The translations under genes and the position numbers were made by a program. A stretch of 63,752 nucleotides of DNA, taken from assembly GCA_023261505.1 (NCBI GenBank), contig JAHFOV010000004.1, forward strand, positions 1-63,752, in the 5' to 3' direction. Source of the DNA: Planctomycetota bacterium (GTDB taxonomy: Bacteria > Planctomycetota > Brocadiia > Brocadiales > Bathyanammoxibiaceae). Below, one piece after another: positions 7,905 through 32,603 of the stretch. The notes below the pieces were generated by a model that made no database searches, was not told the DNA's origin, and was given only the letters and a program-made list of their open reading frames with translations. The stretch's first letter is position 1; the number at the start of each line of letters is the position of its first letter.

Positions 7905-9116
7905 ATGATTACAAAAAGTATCGATCAAATTACTGAAGAAGATTTGCAAGCCTTAATAGATAATTCAGTAGCAGAAGGTAAAAAAATAGAGTACAAGGAA
8001 AAGTTGCCAGAAAATACGGGTGAGGACAAAAAAGAATTTCTGGCCGACATTTCATCTTTTGCAAATGCAAGCGGTGGCGATTTAATATATGGAATTGTTG
8101 AGGATAGGAAAACAGGAACTCCTAAAACATTAGAAGGTTTGCCTATTGAAAATGCAGATAAAACAATTCTTAGGCTTGATAGCATGATAAGAGATGGGAT
8201 TGAGCCAAGAATATTGGGCATAGGCATTCATCCTGTTAAACTTTCAAATTCAAAAGTTGCTTTAATAATCAGAGTGCCCCAAAGCTGGGCGAAACCTCAC
8301 TGTGTAACTTTTCAAGACCATAACAAGTTTTATTCAAGAGGTGCAAAAGGAAAGTATCTAATGGATGTTGCCGAATTGCGGGTCGCTTTTAATTTATCGG
8401 AAACAATAACGGAAAGAATCAGAACATTCAGGGAAGATAGAATATCACAAATATTTTCTAATGAAACCCCAGTACCCTTTGATTATGCAGCCAAGATAGT
8501 CCTTCACTTAATACCACTCATCTCATTTAATCCTGCTCAAAGATATGACATAGATAAAATAGCCTCCGATCCATTGAAAGGACTGTTACCGATATATTCA
8601 AGCTCCCATATGAGTAGATATAACCTTGATGGGTTCCTAACTTATAGCAGTGCTGTAACACCTAGCGACACACAAAGAACATGTTCTTATGTGCAACTTT
8701 TTAGGAATGGCATTATTGAGGCTGTAGAAGGAGACTTACTCGATCCTTCCTATAAGGGTAATAAGTTGGAAATTCCTATTGAGTATGAAAAAGAGTTGAT
8801 TGAATCGTTTGACATGTATCTTAACGTTCTTAAACTGCTAGAGGTTGAGCCGCCGGTCTTAATCTTTTTGGCCTTACTTGGCGTCAAAGGATACATAATG
8901 ACTGTACCTCAACAACATACCGGACATTACGTTTCCCGCAGAGATCCTCGTGCCACACCTATTGACAGAGATGTTTTGTTATTACCTGAGGTTATGATTG
9001 AAAGGTACGATCTGCCGGCTGAGAGTATTTTAAAGCCCTGCTTTGATTCCGTGGCGAATGCGTGCGGGCTCCCCGGTTCGCTCAATTACGACAAGGCAGG
9101 AAAATGGGTGGGTTAG
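7905..9116 (+). CDS. AlbA_2/Schlafen-like domain protein
   Basis: EGKKIEYK...DISSFANASGGDLIYGI...D motif; visibly AT-richer than its neighbours. Confidence 0.85.
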   Translation: MITKSIDQITEEDLQALIDNSVAEGKKIEYKEKLPENTGEDKKEFLADISSFANASGGDLIYGIVEDRKTGTPKTLEGLPIENADKTILRLDSMIRDGIEPRILGIGIHPVKLSNSKVALIIRVPQSWAKPHCVTFQDHNKFYSRGAKGKYLMDVAELRVAFNLSETITERIRTFREDRISQIFSNETPVPFDYAAKIVLHLIPLISFNPAQRYDIDKIASDPLKGLLPIYSSSHMSRYNLDGFLTYSSAVTPSDTQRTCSYVQLFRNGIIEAVEGDLLDPSYKGNKLEIPIEYEKELIESFDMYLNVLKLLEVEPPVLIFLALLGVKGYIMTVPQQHTGHYVSRRDPRATPIDRDVLLLPEVMIERYDLPAESILKPCFDSVANACGLPGSLNYDKAGKWVG

Positions 9117-13792: not shown

Positions 13793-14488
13793 ATGACTTA
13801 CGGTATATTGACTAATAAAGTGTGCCGAAGTGTCTTTGAGGAGATTAACAACCTCCCTTACTGTAAAGCTTGCCGTCGTGCTAGAATAGAATTTGCTGAA
13901 AAGGATAAAAAGCATGATGGTTGTTACAGCAATTTGCTTCCAGGTTTTTCTTCTGAAGATGTGGAAATACCAATAGATGTTCTAATTATTGGCGAGGCAC
14001 ACGGCGGAGGTGGAGAAGAGTGGTTTAGAGAACAACGACGGAAAGTATATGATGAAGTTGATCAACTTGCGCAATATTATCTTGCCAAAGAACTAGAGAA
14101 TTTTCATCAGCGAGAAATGAGATGTTTATTTAAAGCTCTTAACAAAAGTGGAAAAAAATGGGTTTTTACCGACCTTATCAAATGCTTTGTTTCGAACGAC
14201 AAAGTCAACGATAAGTACCAAAAAAATCGCCGTGAAGCAATTAAGCATTGCCGTAGATATCTGAAGAAACAAATTGAAGTCCTTCAGCCTAAAAAGATAT
14301 TAAGTTTAGGCAAAACTGTGGCTAAAAAATATTTTAACCTTGAACTCGGGAAGTGGAAAGATGAACACGGTACCATACATAATTGCAAATTCCCTGTAAT
14401 CGTCTCCATATTTCCAAGTAAGAATACAGCGGATTGGTGGGTAGAAAATAAAGGGTGGAAAAAAGTTTTACAAAACCTTTTCAAATAA
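13793..14488 (+). CDS. Uracil-DNA glycosylase-superfamily protein (divergent)
   Basis: CKAC, LIIGEAHG, FTDLIKC, HCRRYLKKQIEVLQPKKILSLG, and FPS in place of HPS; AT-rich. Confidence 0.7.
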   Translation: MTYGILTNKVCRSVFEEINNLPYCKACRRARIEFAEKDKKHDGCYSNLLPGFSSEDVEIPIDVLIIGEAHGGGGEEWFREQRRKVYDEVDQLAQYYLAKELENFHQREMRCLFKALNKSGKKWVFTDLIKCFVSNDKVNDKYQKNRREAIKHCRRYLKKQIEVLQPKKILSLGKTVAKKYFNLELGKWKDEHGTIHNCKFPVIVSIFPSKNTADWWVENKGWKKVLQNLFK

Positions 14489-26754: not shown

Positions 26755-27468
26755 ATGTATTCAAGGGCTATTACTTTATATAACTTGATTGAGTTTTTAA
26801 ACACTCTTAAGAAAATTCCTAACGTTAATCATGTAATGAAGAGGCACTTATCGAAAAAGATAGAGAGTGGGGCGTATGCGGAGCTTGAGACGGCTTATCT
26901 TGTTAGAAAGGCAGGTTATAAGGTGTCTTTCTCCAGCCCCAAAGCCCCTGCCTCGAACCCTGACCTGATAGCCTGGATAAATGGTCAAAAGATAAACATA
27001 GAAATTATATTTTTGCAAAGGCCCACCGGCGGTCGAATGAAACTTACAGAAGTGGACAGAATCAAAAGGGCCATAGATAACAAATCCAGGCAACTACCCA
27101 GCGTTGAACCTGGTATTATTGTACTTTATAGTCAGCAGATTACGATAAGAGACCTGCAAAGGGCTGTTCACCAGATTCAGGAAAGGCTTTCAAGGTATCC
27201 TTATATCAAGGCCCTGGTAGTCATAAAAGACTTTCCAGGTAGGGACAGGTCTAAAGACCTGTCCACAAATTTGCCCCAGTTTTGGACAGACCTGAAGGTT
27301 TGTCCATACATTGTTTCTCTAAAGGAGACTGATGAGTTCCTACGGGCAAGGACAAGGTTTAATAATTTTACCCGTTATACATTTATTGTGAAGGGCACAG
27401 ATCTAAAGCCTCATCTTTTAGACGGCCTTAAGAAGGTCTTCATGGCCACAAGCGTAACTTCTTTATAG
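26755..27468 (+). CDS. Hypothetical protein with a possible PD-(D/E)xK nuclease fold
   Basis: AELETA...G..V.F...NPDLIA...INIEII; 12 bp after the tilS stop. Confidence 0.5.
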   Translation: MYSRAITLYNLIEFLNTLKKIPNVNHVMKRHLSKKIESGAYAELETAYLVRKAGYKVSFSSPKAPASNPDLIAWINGQKINIEIIFLQRPTGGRMKLTEVDRIKRAIDNKSRQLPSVEPGIIVLYSQQITIRDLQRAVHQIQERLSRYPYIKALVVIKDFPGRDRSKDLSTNLPQFWTDLKVCPYIVSLKETDEFLRARTRFNNFTRYTFIVKGTDLKPHLLDGLKKVFMATSVTSL

Positions 27469-27524: not shown

Positions 27525-28235
27525 CTATTCCCTTGTAAGCGGCACAAAGAGCACGGGCGCTACTTCTTCTTTCTTTATCTCTCCAGTAACGTCCTTAATT
27601 ATAAGGGTTAAACTCTGGGTTCGGTAGGGCCGGCCTATAGGGATGACCATTCGGCCTCCGGGCTTGAGCTGGTCTAGCAATGCAGGGGGGATTTGCGGGC
27701 AGGCCGCAGTAACTATAATGGCATCAAAAGGTGCCCTATCCGGCATTCCCAAATAACCATCCCTGGCATAGACAATCACATTGTCGTAGCCAAGTTCTCG
27801 CAGGGTCTCACTAGCCCTTTTTGCCAGTTCTTTGTTTATCTCTATCGTGTAGACCGTTTTGGCTAAAAGGGAGAGTATGGCGGCCTGGTAACCCGAACCT
27901 GTACCTATCTCCAGCACCTTGTCTTCTTCTTTTAGGTCCAAAAGTTCGGTCATTAAGGCCACAATGTAAGGCTGGGAGATGGTCTGCCCTGAGCCTATGG
28001 GTAATGGACCGTCCCCGTAACTTAAAGACCTCAATTCCTTAGGGACAAAGCGGTGCCTCGGCACAGCCTCCATAACCGCAAGTACACGTTTATCCTTTAT
28101 CCCTCTTGCCGCAATCTGCTCCTCCACCATCCTCTTGCGCTCCTTGGCAAAAGATTCTTCCTCATCGGCATTTAGCCATTGGGTCAATAAGAGAATCAAG
28201 AGGAAGGGGAGAGATAATCTGAGCGGCGTTTTCAT
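27525..28235 (-). CDS. pcm: Protein-L-isoaspartate O-methyltransferase (with signal-like N-terminus)
   Basis: VPRHRFV, GQTISQPYIVA, VLEIGTGSGYQAA and PFDAIIVTAA. Confidence 0.95.
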   Translation of the reverse strand: MKTPLRLSLPFLLILLLTQWLNADEEESFAKERKRMVEEQIAARGIKDKRVLAVMEAVPRHRFVPKELRSLSYGDGPLPIGSGQTISQPYIVALMTELLDLKEEDKVLEIGTGSGYQAAILSLLAKTVYTIEINKELAKRASETLRELGYDNVIVYARDGYLGMPDRAPFDAIIVTAACPQIPPALLDQLKPGGRMVIPIGRPYRTQSLTLIIKDVTGEIKKEEVAPVLFVPLTRE

Positions 28236-28326
28236 GTGGATATTAGGGTTTAGAATTTTAAGGGCCCATACACACTTATCAGCCTAAGGTGGGGATAACA
28301 AAGCTACATTTCTTCATAGTTACACC

Positions 28327-29565
28327 CTAAACCGAGTTTGACCTACACCCATTACACAAATTATTATTTTTACCTTCGCCAATAGGACAATCTATTGGTT
28401 CACATTTGAAAACATATCCACATGAAATAAGGACTACTGGGCAAACTTTTTTTTCTAAGAGGTTACGTTCGGTTTGAGGAAATTGCCATTTCCAGCAGAT
28501 TCTTTTTGCCCCCCCGTCACGGAACAAACAGAAACCTTCCATTTTCTTCTCGCACATTCTTGGAGCAAAATCAAAAGAAATGTCAAATTGTTCAGGGTAA
28601 TATCCGTTTTTTTCCTCTATACTTAGCGTCTCAAATATTCTCCGCATCATCTGGGAAGCATTCTTAACAAAGACCTTTCTATTATTAACTTTTTTGTCTT
28701 TGAAAAGAGGTTTAAGGAGGGCGTTAGAGAACCTTATATTCCAAACATCCCCCGGAAATTCCAAAGAGAAAAGACTATCTTGACTTAACAACTGCTGTTG
28801 GTCTTCCCCAAATGATTTAATGAAGGATTCTCTTAAAGGACTTCCGGGTTTGACATAATCCCTTAATGCCGCCCATAATCTTTTCGCCCCGAATCTACCA
28901 GATTTATTCCAATTATCATAGCCAGTGGTTAGGCCATTATTTAATACGCTCTTATATTGGCTCACACCATTCAAAAAACTTTGACGATTATTATTTTCAA
29001 AATTGGGGAAGTCTTTGTTAACATCCTTATATGTAAGTAAGTATAAGAGATAGGCCATCTTACCTAAATTATCATTGCCATTTGACCAAAAGTTCCTTTT
29101 GCTCAACAAGAAATTTATGATGTTCTTCTCGTAATCCAAAAGAACTGTGAGAGTTCTTGCTATTGAATAAAGGTCATCCTGATACCGTGTTGCAAATTTC
29201 TGGAAGTTTGTCTTTTCTCTGGATTTGAACAAGTCAATAATTGCTCCCCTTGTAGGAGCTTCCATGAAACCGTTCAACCTCCCGAATATTTTTTCCATTA
29301 GATCGTTTTCATTTTGGGTCTCATCGCTTGCGTATTTATTGATTACCTCACTAAATATTTGGCCTCCTATTTCCCAAACTGGTTCGAAGGGACGCATTCG
29401 ATCAGTTATATAGCATAACCAGTGGACAAGAATTTTTTGATCGTCAGACAATTGCCTAAACTTATCTATATTAAGCAAACCGGACATCATTATATCTTCG
29501 CTATGCCATCTAGCATGGTCGAGCCAAGCAACCAACCTCAAGATATTCCCAAACTTTTCATTCAT
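28327..29565 (-). CDS. AT-rich hypothetical protein, possibly a distant HhH-GPD/DUF2400-like DNA glycosylase with a Cys-rich tail
   Basis: GAKRLWAALRDY, LEFPGDVWNIR, then about nine C-terminal Cys (CEKK..FCLF..C..CPV..CGY..C..CPI..CNGC). Confidence 0.5.
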   Translation of the reverse strand: MNEKFGNILRLVAWLDHARWHSEDIMMSGLLNIDKFRQLSDDQKILVHWLCYITDRMRPFEPVWEIGGQIFSEVINKYASDETQNENDLMEKIFGRLNGFMEAPTRGAIIDLFKSREKTNFQKFATRYQDDLYSIARTLTVLLDYEKNIINFLLSKRNFWSNGNDNLGKMAYLLYLLTYKDVNKDFPNFENNNRQSFLNGVSQYKSVLNNGLTTGYDNWNKSGRFGAKRLWAALRDYVKPGSPLRESFIKSFGEDQQQLLSQDSLFSLEFPGDVWNIRFSNALLKPLFKDKKVNNRKVFVKNASQMMRRIFETLSIEEKNGYYPEQFDISFDFAPRMCEKKMEGFCLFRDGGAKRICWKWQFPQTERNLLEKKVCPVVLISCGYVFKCEPIDCPIGEGKNNNLCNGCRSNSV

Positions 29566-29668
29566 CTCACTTACCTTTTTTCACTTTTTTACTCCAGTGC
29601 CAATCCTTTTCAATCAAATCCCTTATAAGAGAGGTCTTCGATACGGTTTCGTTTTTTCTTCTTAGGCC

Positions 29669-29699
29669 AGCACGTGCGGTGCGTCAATACGCACCCTAC
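29669..29699. repeat. GTAG-family REP-like palindrome
   Basis: GTGCGGTGCGTCAATACGCACCCTAC. Confidence 0.55.
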
Positions 29700-29718
29700 A
29701 CTTCTTAAATCACCACTT

Positions 29719-29793
29719 TTAAGGTTTCACCACAAGGCTTACCTCCTGCCCCTCCGTAACTTCTCCTACAATAGAGGCCTCTTGGACGTCCCT
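29719..29793 (-). pseudogene. Relic duplicate of the selD 3' end (last 24 codons plus stop)
   Basis: Translates as RDVQEASIVGEVTEGQEVSLVVKP* versus selD RGVKEATIIGEVTEKQDVCLVVKP*; 17/24 identical. Confidence 0.85.
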
Positions 29794-29816
29794 CGGCCAT
29801 AAAGGTTTCTTAGCAG

Positions 29817-29905
29817 GTAGGGTGCATCTTGGCGCACCCCACAATTCTGCATTTTCTGTAGCGTGCGACCTCGTGTCGCACGTGCGAGGCAAGCTCGCAC
29901 GCTAC
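29817..29905. repeat. Two adjacent GTAG-family REP-like palindromes
   Basis: GTAGGGTGCATCTTGGCGCACCCCA and GTAGCGTGCGACC...GCTCGCACGCTAC. Confidence 0.7.
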
Positions 29906-29926
29906 ATGCTTTACGAGCTTTTATAT

Positions 29927-29965
29927 TTAATAAACTTCCTCATGCGTCCCAATCTCTATTAGAAA
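29927..29965 (-). pseudogene. C-terminal fragment of a YafQ/RelE-like toxin
   Basis: FLIEIGTHEEVY*, resembling the conserved ..DIGTHDEVY* end of this toxin family. Confidence 0.55.
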
Positions 29966-30112
29966 GTCCCTGCTGTCAGGTAACTCTTCCCGCAGTGCAG
30001 ACTGCTCACCACTGGGATATTTTCTATCACCAGCAGATACTTGCCTTTGCCATAGGTTCTGGCCACTCGGCGGATACGCACACCCTTTTTTACCGCAAAT
30101 GTCGCACCTCAT
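29959..30112 (-). pseudogene. YgiT-type zinc-finger (MqsA N-terminal-like) pseudogene, frameshifted and truncated
   Basis: MRCDICGK, then after an A6 run GVRIRRVARTYGKGKYLLVIENIPVVSSLHCGKSYLTAGTF*. Confidence 0.7.
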
Positions 30113-30194
30113 CTGACTTCTCCAATCTTTACAGAGCATTACACTTGTCCAAAATAATCTTAGCAAAGACCTCCAATGCCATAATATCCCTTGA

Positions 30195-30248
30195 GTAGCC
30201 GCAGGCTTTAGCCTGCGTATAATAACGCAACCTAAAGGTTGCGGCTAC
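30195..30248. repeat. GTAG-family REP-like palindrome
   Basis: GTAGCCGCAGGCTTTAGCCTGCG...CGCAACCTAAAGGTTGCGGCTAC. Confidence 0.75.
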
Positions 30249-30363
30249 ACAAACAAACCAGAGTTGGAGGTAGACTAAACTCGGTTAGGATAACGCCAAA
30301 ATCCTTGTTCTAATACCTTACTTTGGAACGGAAAAGGGGCATGGCTAGATTATCTTGGACACC

Positions 30364-30390
30364 GGTATTGCTCCATAGAAGTGTTCTCAT
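30364..30390 (-). pseudogene. N-terminal stub of a YafQ/RelE-like toxin
   Basis: TAATG overlap with the antitoxin stop; MRTLLWSNT, then similarity is lost. Confidence 0.45.
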
Positions 30391-30599
30391 TAGGAAAGCT
30401 CACGCATAAGATCATCTACTGTTCCTTTCCTAACCTCGCCCTTTGTATATTCCTCCTTTGCCTCCTTAATGCTCTGGGCAAGTCTGTCCCTTCGTTCCTC
30501 TAGTAACCGCTTTTTAACTATCTCAATAAGTGACTCTCTTTGTTCTTCAGGCAAAGATTCAACAAGTTCAATGACCTTATCAAAAGTAATATCCTTCAT
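30390..30599 (-). CDS. Small type II antitoxin-like protein
   Basis: F..VIELVESLPEEQRESLIEIVKKRL.E.RR..LA..IKEAKEEY..G....GTV.DLM.EL pattern; SD GGAGG. Confidence 0.65.
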   Translation of the reverse strand: MKDITFDKVIELVESLPEEQRESLIEIVKKRLLEERRDRLAQSIKEAKEEYTKGEVRKGTVDDLMRELS

Positions 30600-30637
30600 C
30601 CTTTTAGCCTCCTGACATTATGTTGGAAAATGAGAGA

Positions 30638-30724
30638 TTATGCCACCAGATGCTTGCCTTTTCCATATATTCGGGCAACTCGGCGGATACGGACGCCATT
30701 TTGTCCACAAATGTCACACAACAT
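30638..30724 (-). pseudogene. Second, truncated YgiT-type zinc-finger fragment
   Basis: MLCDICGQNGVRIRRVARIYGKGKHLVA*, paralogous to 29959-30112. Confidence 0.65.
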
Positions 30725-30733
30725 AAGTTAAAA

Positions 30734-31384
30734 TTATACTCCCCTAACTACCACTCTGTCACCACGCATTAATTCCCATTGGCGCTGGTATTCCATGATT
30801 CGTGCGACCTCGCTTACGAATTCTTCATCGTAGCCGTGGCGTTCAAGCAGATAAAAGCCTAGCTCCATGCCACTGCTTATGCCGCCTGCGGTGATTAGCC
30901 GGCCTGTGTCCACCACGCGCGCACGGCTAATTTCGACCTTTGGGGCGTAGTCCTTTAGCCGGTTGAGGGGGGTCATTGCTTCGCTAGGATCCGCCTCTTT
31001 TCGGGACGTCGCCGCCAGTCCATCGAGGAGCCCCATAACCCCATACACCCATGACCCTGTGCAGACTGAACATAGCAACGTCGTCACGGGTAGTTCAAGC
31101 ACAAACTGGCGTAAGCGCTGATTGCGTATCTCTGTACGTGTACCGATGCCACCAGGTATAATAAAGGCGGTTACGTTAGGATGATGGTCAAGGGCATAGC
31201 GTGGCGTCACCATCATGTTACCAGTCGCCACTACCGGCGTTCCCGAATCTCCTATAAGAAAGACATCTATCTCAGGGTCTAGACGTCTCGCCACAGACAT
31301 CACCCCAAAAGGCGCCGCCCAGTCCACTACTTCGGCCCCGTTAAAAATATATATCCCAATACGAGGCTTGATTTTACCATTCAT
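30734..31384 (-). CDS. DJ-1/PfpI family protein
   Basis: YIFNGAEVVDWAAP, IIPGGIG, nucleophile SVCTG and ITAGGISSG. Confidence 0.9.
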   Translation of the reverse strand: MNGKIKPRIGIYIFNGAEVVDWAAPFGVMSVARRLDPEIDVFLIGDSGTPVVATGNMMVTPRYALDHHPNVTAFIIPGGIGTRTEIRNQRLRQFVLELPVTTLLCSVCTGSWVYGVMGLLDGLAATSRKEADPSEAMTPLNRLKDYAPKVEISRARVVDTGRLITAGGISSGMELGFYLLERHGYDEEFVSEVARIMEYQRQWELMRGDRVVVRGV

Positions 31385-31511
31385 TTGTCGGCTCCTTTTC
31401 GATAATGAAATAGAGAATATGGACTTCATAAGGGGGTAATACGTGTTAAATACAACCGTTAACTAGAACTCTTTGCTTAAATAAATGTCTCCTATTATCG
31501 GCAAAGAGCGA

Positions 31512-31537
31512 GTAGGGTACGTTTCAACGCACCCTAC
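31512..31537. repeat. GTAG-family REP-like palindrome just downstream of selD
   Basis: GTAGGGTACGTTTCAACGCACCCTAC. Confidence 0.65.
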
Positions 31538-31559
31538 AGTTACGATTTAACATCGTTTT

Positions 31560-32603
31560 TTACGGTTTCACTACCAGACAGACATCCTGTTTTTCAGTAA
31601 CCTCTCCAATTATAGTAGCCTCCTTGACCCCCCTGCTTTGTAGATCTCTTATCAGAGAGTCGGCCTTTTCCCTGGGCAGAGAGATAAGAAGTCCCCCTGA
31701 GGTCTCTGCGCCATAAAAAACATCCAGGAGGTCGTCAGAGATTTTTCCTTCTAATCTTACCTTGGGGGATACGTAACTTTTATTTTGTACCGATGCCGCC
31801 GGCATCAGTCCCGATGAGGCATGGCGCAATGCTCCTGTCATAAGGGGTATCTTTCCGGCCTGAAAGGACAGGGTTGCATTGCTTGCAAGGGCCATCTCCA
31901 TGCTGTGTCCCATGAGGCCGAAGCCTGTGATGTCAGTGCACGCATTAACTCCTGCCTCTTGCATCGCCTCTGAGGCCACTGCATTCAGGGACTTCATGGT
32001 GGTGACCATGGCCTCGACTTCCTCTTCTGAGGCCTCTTCAGCCTTATAGGCAGAGATTATTAGCCCTCCTCCCAGGGGCTTGGTTAGCACCAGCACATCC
32101 CCAGGTTTGGCCCCGGCATTGGTAATTACCTTTTTGGGATTCACTACCCCGGTAACAGAGAGTCCAAACTTTATCTCAGTGTCCTGTAAAGTATGGCCTC
32201 CGACCACTACCGCCCCTGCCTCGTGCACCTTTTCTGCCGATCCCCTAAGGATTTCCGCAATGACGCTTAGCTCCACTTCCCTCATGGGGAAGGCCAGGAT
32301 ATTCATTACAGTTAGAGGCCTTCCCCCCATGGCATAGACATCGCTCATGGAATTAGCGGCGGCTATCTGCCCGTAGTCATAAGGGTCATCTACAATAGGG
32401 GAAAAGAAGTCAAGGGTTTGGACCAGGGCCACTTCAGGGCTAATCTGATAAACCCCTGCATCGGCAAAGGTCTTTGGCCCTACCAGCAGGTTTTTGTCTG
32501 GGAAATCTGGTAAGTCCTTCAGCACCTCCGCCATGCACTCAATGGAGACCTTACCGGCTCAGCCCCCGCACAGGGCATAATCTGTCAGTCGCTTTTTTTG
32601 CAT
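31560..32603 (-). CDS. selD: Selenide, water dikinase, selenocysteine-containing (UGA codon 15)
   Basis: ATG 32603 gives MQKKRLTDYALCGG-U-AGK..., TGA at 32559-32561 in frame with the ORF-track protein; DAGVY, DFFSPIVDDP, SDVYAMGG, GGHT and TDITGFGL. Confidence 0.93.

Follow-up and report, generated by a model that had tools for sequence, protein, structure and literature searches.

To our knowledge, defence by base excision is a recent finding that has so far been limited to enzymes of the uracil-DNA glycosylase (UDG) fold, Brig1-3, and that the only known defensive use of the helix-hairpin-helix (HhH) fold is as an inactive sensor, in the END nucleases. Brig1-3 are single defence-island genes whose products excise a phage-specific modified base and leave abasic sites, and they have no immunity partner (PMC13160076; Hossain et al. 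2024, cited there). In END nucleases, a PLD nuclease is fused to an inactivated EndoIII/Ogg domain and is directed against hypermodified phage DNA (PMC12191111), which sets a precedent for an HhH-superfamily module in anti-phage defence. Here we analyse P0001, a 412-amino-acid open reading frame (ORF) in a 63,752-nucleotide stretch of a Planctomycetota genome (assembly GCA_023261505.1, contig JAHFOV010000004.1), which is referred to as the window. We propose that P0001 belongs to a divergent, mobile family of metal-cluster, DNA-glycosylase-like enzymes used in phage-host conflict, an explanation with a candidate fold and a candidate activity that we give about an even chance of being correct. 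Descent from the HhH-GPD superfamily, considered as a separate question, appears rather probable.

P0001 is not the orphan that a preliminary description, made from the DNA sequence, had taken it for. Its homologues fall into 170 clusters at 90% identity (E ≤ 1e-3), and an exhaustive search returned at least 342 family representatives at 50% identity, 242 of them with E < 1e-10. Where source names were given, all read 'hypothetical protein', and none of the members carried precomputed Pfam domains. Searches with the P0001 sequence against Pfam, NCBIfam, PADLOC and the sequences of the PDB gave no match; no defence component model of PADLOC-DB 2.0 matched it at E ≤ 10, and the PF09674/TIGR02757 model gave no match at E ≤ 1. 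P0001 was accordingly not filed as a member of PF00730 or PF09674. A literature search found no paper on the family, which is unnamed, undescribed and unannotated.

We computed conservation on 287 non-identical full-length members. Thirty positions were conserved in at least 95% of them, and K228, R229, R235, D236, P271, D273, N276 and D328 were invariant in all. Because the window's protein keeps every residue that is 100% conserved in the family, P0001 looks functional. The gene and the segments that carry the conservation are as follows.

28327..29565, minus strand: P0001, an intact 412-amino-acid ORF with an ATG start, a member of the unnamed family with all family-invariant residues kept
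29398..29424, minus strand: HWLCYITDR, residues 48-56, a conserved N-terminal helix (H48 and Y52 at least 95%, W49 90-95%)
29095..29205, minus strand: F-A-T-R-Y...D...SIARTL helix, residues 121-157, where the local hhalign match is best (DUF2400 columns 67-103, P 0.016, deep profile)
28855..28884, minus strand: KRLWAALRDY, residues 228-237; K228 opens helix 228-238 and maps through DUF2400 'CKRL' to EndoIII Lys120
28738..28764, minus strand: LEFPGDVWN, residues 268-276 (LEFPGDVWNIR, 268-278); E269, P271, G272, D273, W275 and N276 are 99-100% invariant
28495..28554, minus strand: first Cys group, residues 338-357, directly after the FDVSFDF helix; consensus C338-x4-C343-x2-C346-x9-16-C357
28345..28443, minus strand: second Cys group and tail, residues 375-407; C375-x6-C382-x5-C388-x4-C393, tail C404-x2-C407

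The C-terminal region of P0001 contains nine Cys (338, 346, 357, 375, 382, 388, 393, 404 and 407), the number that the preliminary description had estimated. Across the family, the first group is conserved at 99% (C338), 86% (C343), 99% (C346) and 98% (C357), and the second at 98% (C375), 86% (C382, with a further 10% shifted by one residue), 98% (C388) and 98% (C393). About 30% of members end shortly past C393 and so have exactly eight Cys, the minimal set. The window's protein has Glu at the position of C343, and its clade lacks this Cys. The C-x2-C tail (C404/C407) occurs in 36 of the 41 members without C343, versus 1 of the 246 others (Fisher 3e-39), although these counts are phylogenetically non-independent and likely reflect one or few evolutionary events. 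The tail pair thus appears to replace the missing C343 in the window's clade. Since a Cys swap of this kind is expected of metal or cluster ligands, we infer that the eight core Cys form two tetra-Cys metal sites, of Fe-S or Zn type, in keeping with the two metal or Fe-S sites that had been suggested earlier.

The strongest outside similarity was to DUF2400/TIGR02757 (PF09674), a group that is likewise all-helical and in which the motifs F-x-x-R-(Y/F)...D, K-R-L-x3-L-R, P-x-D-x-(H/W) and (Y/F)-D-(F/V) are collinear with those of the P0001 family. The preliminary description had drawn attention to KRLWAALRDY and LEFPGDVWNIR as reminiscent of HhH-GPD/DUF2400 motifs; both segments are present, and the letters KRLxxxLR, P-x-D-x-(H/W) and (Y/F)D(F/V) do recur, but the resemblance did not reach significance with standard tools. 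For the comparison we used alignments of 30 sequences each for DUF2400 (from the host's phylum), EndoIII and AGOG. With the 287-sequence family alignment, hhalign gave P 0.016 against DUF2400, and 0.056 with a column-trimmed version; in block shuffling, 1 of 50 shuffles reached the real score. Because the putative matches are short motifs parted by long inserts, we loosened the gap costs and set the chained score against those from templates whose column blocks had been shuffled in order. In this chain test, which uses an ad hoc null and non-standard gap settings and in which three families were tried, the family scored 76.1 against DUF2400, compared with 54.7 ± 6.5 for shuffled 15-column blocks (0/200) and 58.0 ± 7.5 for 30-column blocks (2/200). 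Control comparisons gave 1/100 for DUF2400-EndoIII, 9/100 for EndoIII-AGOG and 62/100 for DUF2400-AGOG. The family gave 5/100 against EndoIII (11/40 in an earlier run) and no signal against AGOG (25/40). By this measure the similarity between the family and DUF2400 appears at least as strong as that of the true DUF2400-EndoIII control.

The chained alignment pairs, in order, F-x-x-R-(Y/F)...D...helix, KRLxxxLR, LELPGDVW with LivPLDTH, and YPEQFDVTFDF with DPVrYDF. In the alignment of DUF2400 with EndoIII, 'GSAcKR' falls on the HhH hairpin 'GvGRKT' (Lys120) and 'PLDTH' falls on 'VDTH' (Asp138). Lys120 and Asp138 are the catalytic residues of EndoIII. By transitivity, K228 and D273 would occupy the catalytic Lys and Asp positions; D273 aligned both to 'PLDTH' of DUF2400 and to 'PVDYR' of AGOG, and hence to Asp138. 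The Asp of the P-G-D segment, which the preliminary description had named as the candidate catalytic residue, is invariant in the 287 members. The first Cys group can likewise be laid on the EndoIII cluster loop, with the first three Cys pairing ('FDFvPRMCe--xxxCxxC' on 'hGrxxCxaxxPxCxxC'; local P 0.14 by itself). Most likely, the family split off from the HhH-GPD superfamily as a very divergent offshoot, with the uncharacterised DUF2400/TIGR02757 branch as its nearest neighbour.

The P0001 family also differs from each of these groups. It exceeds DUF2400 in length by about 150 residues, has an additional N-terminal region and inserts at 180-222 and 240-265, and carries two Cys sites, which lie beyond the part of DUF2400 that was compared (Pfam-model matches only). 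Within the host's phylum, 71 of 301 genomes have DUF2400 as a single-copy gene, whereas the P0001 family is rare and mobile. Two invariant residues of the family map via DUF2400 to the catalytic residues of EndoIII/MutY, namely a Lys that in the models heads a helix after another helix and a short loop, and an Asp that follows a Pro/Gly loop at a helix start; as in EndoIII, its four-Cys group begins two residues past the Arg that ends the last core helix. In place of the EndoIII/MutY cluster loop C-x6-C-x2-C-x5-C it has C-x4-C-x2-C-x9-16-C and a second four-Cys site; it lacks the hairpin G-h-G signature, and it is a mobile accessory gene. AGOG (PF09171; PDB 1xg7, 7ou3) resembles the family in its P-V-D-Y-R, which aligns with P-G-D-V-W, and in being a very divergent HhH-GPD member barely tied to EndoIII by profiles, but it is a housekeeping repair enzyme without Cys clusters.

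We built an AlphaFold2 model of P0001 from a 56-sequence alignment, and as a divergent full-length replicate we modelled P0088, a member of another clade that is 33% identical. Both models are almost entirely helical, with a predicted local distance difference test (pLDDT) score of 92.9 and a predicted template-modelling (pTM) score of 0.92 for P0001, and 94.1 and 0.92 for P0088. In the P0001 model, helix 212-222 is followed by a five-residue loop and by helix 228-238, in which K228 is the first residue, and the same layout is found in the P0088 model. P271-G272-D273 lies just before helix 274-283, and the Asp is at or near the helix start in both models. The family therefore shows one HhH-GPD trait, a Gly/Pro loop leading into a helix that has a conserved Asp at its N-terminus. 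The HhH/GPD architecture whose absence would have spoken against the preliminary description is thus found in part, as a helix-loop-helix before K228 together with the P-G-D segment, but without a conserved Gly-rich hairpin.

Foldseek searches against 350,542 PDB chains, with the best 50 matches listed for each model, returned P. furiosus AGOG (1xg7_B) for both: at rank 20 for P0001 (E 1.6, TMt 0.30) and at rank 24 for P0088 (E 2.9, TMt 0.42, root-mean-square deviation (rmsd) 9.2 Å). Its TM-score was the highest among the matches listed, and for P0088 so was its 'prob'. A second AGOG, 7ou3_A, was among the matches listed for P0001. The only other entries common to the two lists of 50 were trichodiene synthase and a membrane transporter, at TM ≤ 0.18, the random level. 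We regard the recurrence of AGOG as a replicated hint from a non-significant match. The PDB holds no DUF2400 structure, so Foldseek could not have found one. A search of the BFVD library of viral structures with the P0001 model gave no significant match. Within that library, A0A7U3MW78, an unnamed 382-amino-acid viral protein, had TM 0.38-0.40, rmsd 7.8 Å and prob 0.57 at a non-significant E of 1.8, and may be a distant viral relative of the family.

The top Foldseek rows were otherwise trichodiene synthase, nuclear receptors, prenyl synthases and G-protein-coupled receptor (GPCR) fusions at TM 0.1-0.2, nearly all of which changed between the models. An isoprenoid-synthase fold, suggested by trichodiene and prenyl-diphosphate synthases standing at the top by E value, was rejected, since the TM-scores were 0.11-0.19 and the conserved positions include no Asp-rich motifs. 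More broadly, the family might be a redox or small-molecule enzyme without a DNA role, for instance an isoprenoid-synthase-like bundle with a ferredoxin-like tail; the eight conserved Cys could make an electron-transfer module, and the hosts are predominantly anaerobic. The random-level TM-scores, the lack of a DDxxD or NSE motif among the conserved positions, the absence of recurrent metabolic neighbours, a genomic context dominated by DNA-targeting genes and fusions of DNA-binding type (both described below) make this a very remote prospect.

Several results, in addition to the limits given above for the chain test and the ligand swap, weigh against assigning the family to the HhH-GPD superfamily. 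No Pfam family, PF00730 and PF09674 included, matched any of 56 diverse members at E ≤ 1, and the family profile found nothing among PDB sequences. Standard hhalign comparisons were at noise level, with P 0.2-0.4 against EndoIII, 0.1-0.4 against AGOG and 0.19 against DUF2400 (56-sequence profile). The canonical HhH hairpin Gly is not conserved (G226, 20%), and 45 residues separate the Lys from the Asp, versus 18 in EndoIII. Foldseek found nothing with E < 0.25 in the PDB for either model, neither list of the best 50 matches included EndoIII, MutY or OGG1, and the AGOG TM-scores stayed below 0.5 in both searches. The comparison with EndoIII, MutY and AGOG that the preliminary description had called for therefore yielded AGOG as a recurrent but non-significant match. 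Control comparisons bear on how the profile results are read. hhalign readily joined DUF2400 to EndoIII (88% probability, E 3e-6), but EndoIII (Nth) and AGOG, which are true structural relatives, went undetected at P 0.055. This indicates that hhalign is blind to the deepest links in the superfamily, and its negative results against EndoIII and AGOG are accordingly weak. The fold assignment draws on several weak, concordant lines and not on a single decisive result. What stands of the earlier proposal of a highly divergent HhH-GPD/DUF2400-type glycosylase is the collinear similarity to DUF2400 and the recurrent AGOG match; significance against Pfam, PDB sequences or in standard hhalign is not part of it.

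These same results could be explained if the family had a new all-helical metal-cluster fold without HhH-GPD descent, acting as a nucleic-acid enzyme (a nuclease, or a base-modifying or redox-dependent enzyme) in defence islands and mobile elements, with the likeness to DUF2400 due to convergence or chance. The failure of fold and profile searches to reach significance with solved structures or Pfam families, the low AGOG scores, the missing hairpin glycines and the large family-specific regions (residues 1-40, 180-222 and 240-265, and the second Cys site) are what such a protein would show, and the context and fusions support a DNA-related role whatever the fold. We nevertheless consider a new fold fairly unlikely, as the collinearity with DUF2400 scores above 398 of the 400 controls with shuffled order, the Lys and Asp that never vary align with catalytic positions, the first Cys group stands at the place of the EndoIII cluster loop, and AGOG recurs in both fold searches.

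The family has a sparse and mobile distribution. The P0001 gene is single-copy in its host genome (2.5 Mb, 96% complete), and the family was not found in 40 relatives of the host (13 from its own family and 27 from its order). About 105 of 185,579 species-representative genomes encode a relative. The hosts are bacteria and archaea of mostly anaerobic lineages (among them Chloroflexota, Bathyarchaeia, Methanosarcinales, Thermoplasmata, Planctomycetota, Bacteroidota, Clostridia, Thermodesulfobacteriota, Verrucomicrobiota and Acidobacteriota), and phages carry the family as well. Brassicibacter mesophilus DSM 24659 and the archaeon Methanococcoides alaskense DSM 17273 are the two hosts in culture. 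In a maximum-likelihood tree of the family, phyla were intermixed throughout and viral copies were nested among cellular ones. One clade (L044, L046, L047 and L050; terminal branches 0.07-0.11) joined Aerophobetes, WOR-3, a Methanosarcinales archaeon and an actinomycete, and these nearly identical proteins indicate recent transfer between bacteria and archaea. The tree shows rampant horizontal transfer of the family, including between domains.

In IMG/VR, only 3 of 2.9 million contigs carried a family gene. On one of these phage contigs (L121, 2467-8535), an insert of two genes, a family member and a DUF6998 gene, separates the large terminase from a lambda-type portal gene, at a classic moron site. 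Another contig (L123) also has terminase and head-protease genes. Such bona fide phage copies, copies beside a D5-type primase or large serine recombinases (5 loci), and the nesting of viral among cellular copies would fit a gene that serves mobile elements, encoding a counter-defence or DNA-modification or DNA-processing enzyme that phages or elements carry as a moron, in which case presence in defence islands would reflect the mobile origin of the islands. This account is improbable: the three viral contigs compare with 105 cellular species genomes, the phage copy is paired with a gene resembling methyl-directed restriction and so looks like prophage-borne defence cargo, and many copies lie inside chromosomal arrays of restriction-modification (R-M) or BREX genes.

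To look for features shared among family loci, we compared gene neighbours at 86 loci and examined the 11 contexts with precomputed Pfam annotation. R-M, BREX or other defence genes were found in 8 of the 11 annotated contexts, a count made without a matched background, which weakens the association with defence. The annotated contexts contain the following.

L002: a Type-1 BREX-related system (SNF2 helicase, DUF1156 methylase, HEPN-DUF499 ATPase) that ends 20 bp upstream, then AbiE and BrnTA
L006: a DUF499 gene and a Panacea-type toxin-antitoxin pair
L203: BREX PglZ and BrxL
L207: an MmeI-type R-M enzyme and PDDEXK_3
L206: an Eco57I-type R-M enzyme, an EVE-nuclease, GIY-YIG and a D5 primase
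L204: a methylase with MutH-type R-M, and GIY-YIG
L202: TIR, PLD and PDDEXK genes
L001: HEPN-AbiU2
L205: toxin-antitoxin genes only
L004 and L008: no defence, R-M or toxin-antitoxin genes

The BREX-related system of L002 is named after PMC12839542. At this locus (L002:875-8896) an HNH nuclease gene starts right at the stop codon of the family gene, and the two genes may be auxiliary parts of the BREX-related system. At L206 (8246-8743), a 165-amino-acid DUF6884 gene directly follows the family member, beside the D5-type primase and the Eco57I-type R-M enzyme, and matches the PADLOC candidate PDC-M57A (E 4e-8).

Recurrent neighbours were HsdR (5 loci), large serine recombinases (5) and a UvrD-PD-(D/E)XK helicase-nuclease (5, adjacent in 4). 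Adjacent nucleases of varied families on the same strand were found at no fewer than eight loci, with gaps of 0-290 bp. They include HNH at L002 (gap 0), PDDEXK_4 at L204 (35 bp), PDDEXK_3 at L207 (74 bp) and UvrD-PDDEXK_1 at L095, L117, L119 and L089; on phage contig L121 the adjacent DUF6998 protein (22 bp) matches a PADLOC methyl-directed type II restriction enzyme (E 6e-13). A fixed operon partner was rejected, since the best neighbour cluster occurred at 7 of the 86 loci and 176 Pfam families were represented among the 148 immediate neighbours. Two members have N-terminal fusions, P0150 to DUF7669 (E 3e-12) with a weak HARE-HTH match, and P0156 to DUF7662. HARE-HTH has been put forward as a reader of modified DNA (Aravind and Iyer 2012, as cited in PMC11037411). 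Literature searches did not find papers describing the function of DUF2400, DUF7662 or DUF7669. The possible defence role raised in the preliminary description gains a defence-type setting from these contexts and the recurrent nucleases; the window's own locus, by contrast, has no recognised defence system and offers near P0001 only toxin-antitoxin remnants and a DJ-1 gene, which also counts against a defensive function.

The varied nucleases next to family genes would also suit an HhH-GPD-like sensor or reader of unusual bases that recruits or licenses a neighbouring nuclease, for which the EndoIII-like domain of END nucleases, a sensor of hypermodified phage DNA (PMC12191111), is a precedent. 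Most loci, however, have neither an adjacent nuclease nor a conserved partner, and, in contrast to the inactivated END domain, the family keeps its candidate catalytic Lys and Asp in 100% of members. The family also differs from END nucleases in having Cys clusters and in lacking a PLD or other fused nuclease domain. Alternatively, the protein could be a niche repair glycosylase of anaerobes. A PF00730 search of the host genome found four other genes (contigs C135, C41, C36 and C66), P0001 not among them, and with these four canonical HhH-GPD genes the host's ordinary base-excision repair is independent of P0001. A patchy, mobile distribution is also unlike that of a housekeeping repair gene. 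Taken as one alternative, a sensor or niche repair enzyme is quite unlikely.

Under the explanation we prefer, a DNA-glycosylase-like enzyme of phage-host conflict, the protein would bind DNA and flip a base out, and its N-glycosidic bond would be cut by D273 (in the P-G-D loop, at a helix start) together with K228 (on the second helix of the HhH-like element). Bifunctional glycosylase/AP-lyase (apurinic/apyrimidinic lyase) chemistry is plausible because the two residues are positional equivalents of EndoIII Asp138 and Lys120. The first tetra-Cys site (C338/C343/C346/C357), at the position of the EndoIII/MutY [4Fe-4S] loop, may help to position DNA, and the second (C375/C382/C388/C393), which has no EndoIII counterpart, may add stability or redox sensing. 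The gene travels on phages, integrative elements and restriction or defence islands, usually as a stand-alone module and often beside a nuclease. Its role would be to attack or mark foreign DNA containing a base that is absent from the host; with no immunity partner at hand, the enzyme presumably tells foreign DNA apart by such a base. Neighbouring nucleases might process the abasic sites or be licensed by the protein as a sensor. The proposed logic would be the same as that of Brig1, Brig2 and Brig3, although the Brig enzymes have an alpha/beta UDG fold and a demonstrated activity, whereas P0001 is predicted to be all-helical, has no UDG Pfam match and has a putative activity. More tentatively, P0001 could be the founding member of a class of single-gene anti-phage effectors, active HhH-GPD-derived glycosylase/lyases with two Fe-S (or Fe-S and Zn) sites that are spread among bacteria, archaea and phages and destroy DNA with modified bases; we see this specific version as possible, with the balance tilted against it.

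The family is a candidate defence glycosylase of a second type, with an evolutionary origin separate from that of the UDG-fold enzymes. If so, it would offer a first way into the function of the DUF2400/TIGR02757 branch, which has long stayed uncharacterised. It also adds a high-confidence predicted fold without a close PDB representative, and the two cultured hosts make the family experimentally accessible.

We then considered the place of P0001 in the window, where the following genes flank it.

27525..28235, minus strand: pcm (protein-L-isoaspartate O-methyltransferase), 91 bp downstream of P0001 on the same strand, a conserved flank of the hot spot
29719..29892, minus strand: relic of a selD 3' end, 153 bp upstream of P0001, the other edge of the insertion
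31560..32534, minus strand: selD, a conserved flank that adjoins pcm in relatives, with gaps of 165 bp to 2.2 kb

The P0001 ORF has a guanine-plus-cytosine (GC) content of 37.2% and a third-position GC (GC3) of 38.5%, the second lowest in the window, compared with 47.0 ± 3.4% for the 43 window ORFs of at least 150 amino acids, and a purine-rich run lies just 5' of its start codon. In four relatives, pcm and selD are neighbours with small variable ORFs between them, at distances of 165 bp (G301), about 400 bp (G303), 1.35 kb (G266) and 2.2 kb (G235). The 1.35-kb interval of G266 holds four small ORFs, one of which is 93% identical to a 69-amino-acid antitoxin-like ORF of the window. In the window the interval extends over 3.3 kb (28236-31559) and contains P0001, the selD relic, the antitoxin-like ORF and the DJ-1 gene. 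P0001 is cargo in a variable pcm-selD hot spot of the host's bacterial family, which in relatives is almost empty. The preliminary description was accurate in calling the gene AT-rich and placing it just outside the boundary of the selD relic, and its suggestion of horizontal acquisition is well supported by the low GC content, the absence from 40 relatives, the variable hot spot and the transfer-rich family tree.

Three other ORFs of the window, all on the plus strand, were noted. In the tilS-pcm interval, a 237-amino-acid ORF (26755-27468, GC 41.5%) has no Pfam or PADLOC match; it is absent at the same position in G235 and is found in G266 at 54% identity. The ORF at 7905-9116 (403 amino acids, GC 39.0%), which matches the Schlafen/AlbA_2 domain (PF04326, E 3e-14) and nothing in PADLOC, is probably another accessory gene of the defence-island type. 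The ORF with the lowest GC in the window (36.6%), at 13793-14488, has no PADLOC match and encodes a 231-amino-acid protein of the UDG superfamily (PF03167, E 8e-11), which by this domain match appears to be a second accessory glycosylase-like gene in the window.

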